Shown here: in pieces, positions 9,001 through 9,805 of the stretch | Numbering within the stretch: position 1 is the first letter of the stretch | How the letters are laid out: the number at the start of each line of letters is the position of its first letter | NCBI RefSeq assembly: GCF_057098645.1 | Contig: NZ_CM169472.1 | DNA length: 64,000 nucleotides | Strand: one strand, 5' to 3' | Position numbers: made by a program

Positions 9001-9805
9001 CATTTTGTTAGCACTCTGTTCACCCGAAGACTCAGAATACGTAATTGTCGGTTGCGACGCAACAGCAACGGTGGAATTTTGTGCAGGCTTGATCACAACT
9101 CCTTGCTCTGCTGCGTCGGCCTGGGTAATGGCATTTCCGCCAGTGATTGGCGTACCGGAAGCATTACCCACCTGCAAGGTCTGACCAACGTTCAGCGCGT
9201 ATGGTGCCTGAATATTGTTGCGCTGAGCAAGGTCACGGAAATCGTTGCCAGTAATCCAGGCGATATAGAAAAGCGTGTCGCCTTTTTTCACGGTATAGGT
9301 ACTGCCGCTATAACTGCCTTTCGGAATGTTCCCATACTGACGGTTATAGACGATGCGTCCGTTTTCCATCTGTACCGGCTGCTGAGCTACTGGCTGCACT
9401 GGCTGGATTTGCGGTTGTTGAGTGGCCTGAATTTGTGGCTGCTGTACCGGCTGAATTTGCGGTTGCTGGGCTGTAGACGTCGTCCCCATTTTCGGCGGCG
9501 GCGTAATCAACATACCAGAATTGGTATTTGCAGGCGCATTGCCATTAACGGAGCTGACCGGTGCCGGTGGATTTGAAGTGTCAGAACAGCCTGCCAGCCA
9601 TAGCGAAACCAGTGACAAAGCCGCAATGCGGCGAACGGTGAATTTTGGGCTTCCCGCGCTCATTTATCCCCCAGGAAAAATTGGTTAATAACCAGTGACA
9701 TAATTACCGTGCAAGGCACCATACTGAACACTGGAAAAGATGTTCACGATACGCTGACCTGCGGCAAAATAACCAGGAAAAATCCAGGTATTTCCTCACG
9801 TTTTA

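Follow-up and report, generated by a model that had tools for sequence, protein, structure and literature searches.

A Gln/Pro-rich tandem repeat in the N-terminal tether of E. coli NlpD varies in length in frame and is probably a flexible spacer

The nlpD gene in the 64-kb stretch of DNA that we analyzed (the window) contains a short array of imperfect 24-bp repeats, and the length of this array differs among E. coli genomes. In the reading that we consider likely, the tract is a repeat-built, Gln/Pro-rich flexible spacer in the N-terminal tether of NlpD, an in-frame minisatellite that lies outside the rpoS promoter and the main rpoS leader.

The array and its place in NlpD

NlpD, a lipoprotein of the outer membrane, serves as activator of the septal amidase AmiC. 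On the minus strand of the window, the gene order is surE-pcm-nlpD-rpoS, as judged from open reading frames and from the RefSeq annotation of matching loci. The encoded NlpD is exactly the sequence that a public source names NLPD_ECOLI. Its lipobox, LAGC, occupies residues 23-26 and ends the signal peptide. Pfam searches detected a LysM domain (E = 2.7e-12) followed by a C-terminal Peptidase_M23 domain (E = 4.6e-33), both above the curated cut-offs. Lipobox, domain order, gene order and identity to the reference protein all assign the product to NlpD. The landmarks are:

8524-9663, minus strand: nlpD coding sequence, 379 aa plus stop
7469-8461, minus strand: rpoS coding sequence, 330 aa plus stop; ATG at 8461
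9586-9588, minus strand: Cys26 codon TGT, the lipidated cysteine of lipobox LAGC
9169-9297, minus strand: LysM domain, residues 123-165, the first folded domain past the linker
8548-8829, minus strand: Peptidase_M23 (degenerate LytM) domain, residues 279-372

The repeats sit between Cys26 and the start of the LysM domain at residue 123, with the units covering residues 64-87 and the tract extending to residue 98. Three imperfect units of 24 bp lie head to tail at 9403-9474, on the minus strand inside nlpD, and encode [TA|PV|AT]QQPQIQ three times, followed by a degenerate tail. Pairwise, the units are identical at 15-19 of 24 DNA positions. The parts of the tract are:

9451-9474, minus strand: repeat unit a, ACAGCCCAGCAACCGCAAATTCAG, codons T64-Q71, TAQQPQIQ
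9427-9450, minus strand: repeat unit b, CCGGTACAGCAGCCACAAATTCAG, codons P72-Q79, PVQQPQIQ
9403-9426, minus strand: repeat unit c, GCCACTCAACAACCGCAAATCCAG, codons A80-Q87, ATQQPQIQ
9370-9402, minus strand: degenerate tail of the tract, P88-Q98
9388-9405, minus strand: 9-bp tandem CAGCCAGTG/CAGCCAGTA, covering Q87 and part of the degenerate tail, with one copy more or less in some strains

Tandem Repeats Finder (TRF) reported one array in this region, at 9393-9468, with a period of 24, 3.2 copies, 74% matches and a score of 80. This was the top score among the TRF arrays of the window, in which one other array scored 50 or more. A first-pass annotation of this DNA had described three imperfect 24-bp repeats in nlpD at 9402-9473. 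The array itself stands, with the quoted strings present and the period and score given above, but the coordinates were one base off, because base 9402 is a G and the strings start at 9403. The tract also runs past the interval that was given, through the degenerate tail. The same annotation had the repeats encode a Gln/Pro-rich NlpD linker with a recurring motif, and this too agrees with what we found: QQPQIQ occurs in all three units, residues 59-98 (40 residues) include 16 Q and 7 P, and the RefSeq annotation under every BLAST match names the gene.

The repeat is an ordinary feature that has been known since 1994. A paper by Ichikawa et al. from that year reportedly names 'unusual amino acid repeat sequences' in its title and, as far as that title goes, the NlpD repeat of the 1994 literature and the array in the window are the same feature, with nothing different in the feature itself. 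The NlpD repeat region was also described by Tidhar et al. (2009).

Length variants and their breakpoints

A megablast search with a 414-bp query found nlpD in 5,420 of 5,426 complete E. coli genomes. Each of 59 nlpD matches, sampled evenly, showed the wild-type span by this method, which hides indels: megablast breaks an alignment where a gap reaches about 24 bp, and the identities of the pieces stay high. Indels were instead called with blastn and synthetic-allele queries. With a 200-bp wild-type query, 5,343 of the 5,420 genomes matched at 95% identity or above, 14 at 90-95% and 63 at 60-80%. When the query carried a 48-bp deletion, 57 of the best 60 matches aligned as a single piece of exactly 152 bp, at 98-99.3% identity. 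This contraction to one unit is the main length variant, present in 57-63 of the 5,420 complete genomes. At least 11 records with a one-unit match are labelled O157:H7, including TW14359, EC4115, SS17, SS52 and JEONG-1266. The first four of these O157:H7 strains presumably belong to the clade 8, or spinach-outbreak, lineage.

Other changes were rarer. A query with three copies of the 9-bp tandem identified ∼3-5 genomes with a gain of 9 bp and ∼8 genomes with a loss of 9 bp. Alignment of two low-ranked blastn matches showed a 72-bp in-frame deletion in strain Z142-6 and the loss of one copy of the 9-bp tandem, CAGCCAGTR, in strain 13E0725. A synthetic four-unit (+24 bp) query returned no four- or five-unit allele from the complete genomes; the wild type ranked first, at 89.3%.

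We also took the K-12 protein, constructed predicted alleles from it in silico and searched for each as an exact sequence among ∼15 billion proteins. The numbers of contigs per allele, which are not counts of independent events, were:

Wild type: at least 1000 contigs
+9 bp allele: 234 contigs
One unit (-48 bp): 160 contigs
-9 bp allele: 83 contigs
Two units, a+c (-24 bp): 25 contigs
-72 bp allele: 20 contigs
-60 bp allele, predicted solely from an 8-bp repeat: 14 contigs
Five units, abcbc (+48 bp): 6 contigs
Four units, abbc (+24 bp): 3 contigs
Two units, a+b (-24 bp): 1 contig

Neither the four-unit abcc allele nor the full-length +72 bp allele was present in this exact look-up among ∼15 billion proteins, though P0003 does have a +72 bp allele, for which the annotated start is shorter. 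As controls, five deletions that remove 8 or 16 residues elsewhere in the two linkers were searched in the same protein collection, and 0/5 were found. Repeat-associated alleles were found in 9 of 11 cases, versus none of the five controls (Fisher p = 0.005). The first-pass annotation had suggested that the repeats vary in length from strain to strain, and had held that an invariant repeat number across E. coli would speak against this. The number is not invariant. In-frame length variants of the tract occur in ∼75-80 of the 5,420 complete genomes (∼1.4%), and alleles with one, two, four and five units exist in public data.

The sizes of these indels are exactly the spacings of the direct repeats within the tract. 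There are five pairs of exact direct repeats, with length and spacing of 12/72, 11/48, 9/24, 8/60 and 8/9 bp. The four with the wider spacings are:

9442-9453, minus strand: 12-bp direct repeat CAGCCGGTACAG; second copy at 9370-9381, 72 bp away
9455-9465, minus strand: 11-bp direct repeat CAACCGCAAAT; second copy at 9407-9417, 48 bp away
9451-9459, minus strand: 9-bp direct repeat CAAATTCAG; second copy at 9427-9435, 24 bp away
9437-9444, minus strand: 8-bp direct repeat CAGCAGCC; second copy at 9377-9384, 60 bp away

The copies of CAGCCGGTACAG are the end-points of both the 72-bp deletion in Z142-6 and the 72-bp duplication in P0003. CAACCGCAAAT, which is common to units a and c, is where the recurrent contraction by 48 bp has its junction. 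In the one-unit alleles that we fetched, the surviving unit is a hybrid that begins as a and ends as c (ATC, not ATT), and this places the junction in CAACCGCAAAT. The 9-bp repeat CAAATTCAG is the expected junction of the two-unit a+c allele, and CAGCAGCC predicted a 60-bp deletion allele that was then found. Changes of ±9 bp were located in the CAGCCAGTR tandem. The contig counts fit a pattern in which longer and closer microhomology would give commoner alleles.

Comparisons of flanking DNA indicate that the same change has arisen more than once. TW14359 (one unit) and Sakai (three units) showed 0 differences across 2,457 flanking bases, and the flanks of PK8566 (one unit) and 13P460A (+9 bp) were identical. 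AMSHJX01 and ECCWS199, each with one unit, differed by 12-22 SNPs from the TW14359/PK8566 backgrounds and from each other, and the retained unit has GCC or GCG, which are synonymous, in keeping with its own background. The one-unit allele is present on at least four different flanking haplotypes and, as judged from these flanks, the 48-bp contraction is recurrent across those backgrounds.

The earlier description of the repeats as slippage-prone is supported by breakpoints that fall in direct repeats of 8-12 bp and by a contraction shared by several backgrounds. Replication slippage, or unequal exchange, between these direct repeats would generate in-frame contractions and expansions. Such length changes are tolerated, have come up repeatedly on different backgrounds and at times become fixed in a lineage. 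Slippage and RecA-dependent unequal exchange look alike when sequences are the sole evidence. As DNA, the tract behaves like a small imperfect minisatellite, with slippage as the presumed mechanism.

Like coding minisatellites, the tract has head-to-tail copies, length variation, end-points in direct repeats (microhomology), alleles that recur independently, and a reading frame that is kept. It differs from them in the divergence of its units (15-19/24), because of which its exact matches are short (8-12 bp) and its variants rare (∼1.4%). Also unlike these systems, the commonest change in NlpD, -48 bp, skips the middle unit and is not the loss of a single unit.

We found no report of nlpD length alleles, or of a one-unit allele in O157:H7 or TW14359, in the literature searched. 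A report on an o454-nlpD polymorphism was considered as a possible prior account and set aside; its subject is the mutS-rpoS region and not the repeats. The spectrum of length alleles in the population adds modestly to population genetics and does not amount to a new type of element. A set of O157:H7 genomes is marked by the one-unit allele, and the tract could be a minor typing marker, yet, being homoplastic, it should not be taken for phylogenetic signal. The indel spectrum also provides a clean natural case in which the length and spacing of microhomology predict the in-frame alleles of a coding repeat.

Spacer or sequence motif

We also compared the tract across species. E. fergusonii NlpD has three units, with different dipeptides at the variable (xx) positions. 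GCA_026283405.1, whose 7-kb locus is ∼91% identical to the window, has seven units, of which units 2-4 are repeated as 5-7 in a 72-bp higher-order duplication. In Citrobacter, Salmonella, Kosakonia, Enterobacter, Lelliottia and others, there is one degenerate PQIQPVQ-like unit, and the length of the tract varies. A Pro/Gln-rich repeat region is reported to be absent from Yersinia NlpD (PMC2736372). In an alignment of 17 sequences, the tract was the sole indel-rich part of an otherwise highly conserved NlpD.

Natural tolerance of contraction and expansion, together with turnover between genera, matches what is expected of a flexible spacer. Comparable periplasm-spanning or linker tracts include the Pro-rich spacer of TonB and the Pro/Gln-rich linker of FtsK. 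If the tract functions as a spacer, its composition and approximate length would count more than its exact sequence. It may add to the linker that Lol-dependent outer-membrane sorting requires, and it would bring septal peptidoglycan within reach of the LysM and dLytM domains. For biology in general the repeat is of little consequence, and its behavior is that of a tolerant spacer.

Published work on the linker is consistent with this picture. Both NlpD linkers were predicted to be disordered by DISOPRED (PMC5533458). An AlphaFold2 model that we obtained from the 17-sequence alignment was poor throughout (mean pLDDT 33.6, pTM 0.23, the M23 domain also below 50) and has no bearing on disorder. 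The disordered linkers of the outer-membrane lipoproteins RcsF, Pal and NlpD likewise run from the lipidated Cys to the first folded domain, and the NlpD linker is required for efficient Lol-dependent targeting to the outer membrane (bioRxiv 10.1101/2021.01.05.425367). In that study, ∼60% of NlpD stayed in the inner membrane when residues 29-64 were deleted, and the deletion impaired complementation of the envC nlpD chaining phenotype. The deletion stops where the repeats begin, and the 'linker-less' construct kept the repeats, which lie past the deleted segment (bioRxiv 10.1101/2021.01.05.425367).

The alternative that survives best, an unlikely one in our judgement, is that QQPQIQ acts as a sequence-specific short linear motif for a division-site or outer-membrane partner, with copy number tuning the recruitment or activity of NlpD. 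The hexapeptide core is identical in the three units even though any two of them differ at 2-4 synonymous codons (and at 0 non-synonymous core codons), and neither E. fergusonii nor any of the seven units of GCA_026283405.1 departs from it. Such conservation of the core argues for selection on the peptide sequence, beyond length and composition. Yet lineages with one unit exist in nature, O157:H7 TW14359 and EC4115 among them, and alleles without 60 or 72 bp circulate. PQIQPVQ-like strings do persist across genera, but as one degenerate unit, and the tract is reported missing from Yersinia NlpD (PMC2736372). A fusion with the N-terminal linker of NlpD alone was weakly enriched at midcell, whereas the LysM domain alone suffices for septal localization (PMC5533458). 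A related and slightly less probable proposal is that QQPQIQ is a functional motif whose copy number tunes sorting, midcell recruitment or amidase activation, such that the contraction from three units to one is adaptive, not neutral. We favor the flexible spacer over both.

Relation to rpoS, reading frame and composition

The first-pass annotation had also placed the repeats in the region that serves as rpoS leader and promoter, and had proposed that changes in copy number could affect rpoS expression. The map of the locus does not support this proposal. The main promoter is found at:

9027-9062, minus strand: main rpoS promoter rpoSp, inside nlpD; -35 TTGCGT at 9062-9057, -10 TATTCT at 9039-9034, start site at ∼9029-9027

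The sequence reads TTGCGT-N17-TATTCT across 9062-9034. Published coordinates of rpoSp, counted from the rpoS ATG, are -601 to -596 for the -35 element, -578 to -573 for the -10 element and -568 to -566 for the start site (PMC1852560), and the rpoS leader from rpoSp is 567 nt (PMC10948607). The positions in the window agree with the published hexamers, start site and leader length. The repeats lie at -942 to -1013 from the rpoS ATG, 375-446 nt upstream of the rpoSp start site; the 567-nt leader transcript does not include them, and they overlap neither the -35 element, the -10 element nor a mapped start site. Further start sites have been mapped near the rpoS start codon and upstream of nlpD, with none near the repeats (PMC10948607). 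Complementation clones described as holding the main rpoS promoter do not begin until -657 from the ATG (PMC1852560), well downstream of the repeats. The rpoS 5' leader and rpoSp share gene, strand and operon with the repeats, but the leader, which carries an sRNA-regulated hairpin, does not include them.

What favors an effect on rpoS is the nlpD-rpoS operon. A bicistronic nlpD-rpoS mRNA is made at low level from a promoter upstream of nlpD (PMC10948607; PMC2736372), and it would carry the repeats, given their place inside nlpD and the published operon structure. This minor read-through mRNA would be the sole route by which the repeats reach rpoS. Even there, all variants seen are multiples of 3 bp, and therefore none should be polar on rpoS. 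With the repeats outside promoter and leader and every observed indel in frame, we regard it as very unlikely that they form part of the rpoS leader or promoter and that copy-number changes alter rpoS expression. A consensus promoter scan of 8400-9850 gave no promoter-like site; it misses the known rpoSp too, and hence is uninformative. For engineering or interpretation of nlpD-rpoS, the repeats can be counted as outside the rpoS control region. A search of the whole window against Rfam, at gathering thresholds, returned nothing in nlpD or rpoS. The sole Rfam match in the window was sok, at 27778-27934.

A phase-variable contingency locus, switching NlpD (or rpoS, by polarity) on and off, was rejected as exceedingly improbable. 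A slippage-prone coding repeat upstream of rpoS, a gene often mutated in nature, would suit such a locus. But the unit and all direct-repeat spacings (9, 24, 48, 60 and 72 bp) are multiples of 3, and the observed changes of these same sizes keep the reading frame. Every recovered allele was in frame with its ORF open, and no frameshifting allele was seen among them.

Lastly, we compared the array with shuffled versions of the linker. When codons of linker residues 27-122 were shuffled, 0 of 2000 trials gave a TRF score as high as that of the real coding strand (70); with the codon shuffle confined to residues 59-100, 2 of 2000 did. Among 100,000 amino-acid shuffles of residues 59-100, 0 contained a hexapeptide three times at period 8. 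The array exceeds what Gln/Pro composition gives, and is a true tandem repeat. Strong compositional bias (16 Q and 7 P in 40 residues) and identities of only 15-19/24 between units might suit a periodicity that arose by chance in a Gln/Pro-rich low-complexity region, with no history of duplication, but we rejected this reading, to which we give next to no credence, because the codon and amino-acid shuffles almost never reproduce the array and because strains and related species gain and lose it unit by unit.

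Conserved and lost segments of the NlpD linkers

In an alignment of 17 enterobacterial homologues of NlpD, two segments of the linkers were near-invariant, residues 49–60 (window ~9484–9519) and residues 194–225 (window ~8989–9084). Such near-invariance, within linkers classed as 'disordered', is surprising for passive spacers. The DNA encoding residues 194–225 overlaps the rpoS promoter region, and this overlap may account for the conservation of that segment. The 340-aa E. coli NlpD P0030 lacks 39 residues of the second linker through an in-frame deletion, showing that this linker, too, can lose sequence in nature. 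In the Salmonella bongori protein P0055, residues ~53–80 (NHTAAKNGNDDAADTATSAANSTCSAP) cannot be aligned to any other homologue, yet both flanks align. This stretch looks like a compensated frameshift or sequencing error spanning the Gln/Pro tract.

Three chimeric ORFs (P0045, P0092 and P0087) each retain ~81–85% of NlpD at 100% identity. The fusion partners are UbiD-family domains (ORFs of 560 and 550 aa) or sigma-70 region 4 (403 aa). These chimeras look like natural deletions that removed the 3' end of nlpD together with part or all of rpoS.

Start annotation and distribution of nlpD alleles

In RefSeq, the start of many nlpD alleles is annotated 15 codons downstream (MSLVSLW...), giving a protein of 364 rather than 379 aa at wild-type length. 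All length variants among the fetched nlpD loci carry this downstream start.

Records with the downstream nlpD start
nlpD loci: L001, L002, L003, L005–L008
NlpD proteins: P0003 (which carries a 72-bp duplication of the Gln/Pro tract), P0005, P0006, P0010

Annotated NlpD lengths therefore cannot be compared from one record to another, and the shifted starts can lead to mis-scoring of length variants.

Matches with 100% identity to the nlpD segment 9250–9663 were confined to E. coli O145 and O145:H28 genomes, including RM9872, RM13514 and RM12581. This points to the O145 lineage as the probable source of the window. No nlpD match to this segment was obtained from six of 5,426 complete genomes, among them NZ_CP038394.1 (O55:H7 DEC5A). 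The sole match of DEC5A to the nlpD query, 49 bp within fhlA, was rejected as spurious.

Other features of the window

Features beyond the nlpD repeats
6909–7349, + strand: 146-aa ORF, adjoining rpoS on its downstream side
9258–9283, + strand: terminator-like hairpin with T-run, antisense to nlpD
24904–24943: tandem array of period 21, 1.9 copies, unit TCATACCGGGAAAATAAAATC
27778–27934, – strand: sok antitoxin RNA (RF01794), full-length Rfam match, 98.3 bits versus a gathering score of 59

Terminator-like hairpins showed no excess in the region around nlpD, with 2 found versus 2.2 expected from shuffled sequences. Besides the nlpD repeats, the array at 24904–24943 is the only tandem array in the window with a score of at least 50. 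The full-length sok match indicates that a chromosomal hok/sok-type toxin–antitoxin locus lies inside the window.

The side of rpoS that carries the 146-aa ORF belongs to the mutS–rpoS region, which varies between strains and has been treated previously (PMC4209514). In L009, a locus ~91% identical to the window (GCA_026283405.1), a 135-aa MarR-family gene occupies the position matching this ORF, with flavoprotein (UbiX-like) and UbiD-family genes following it.
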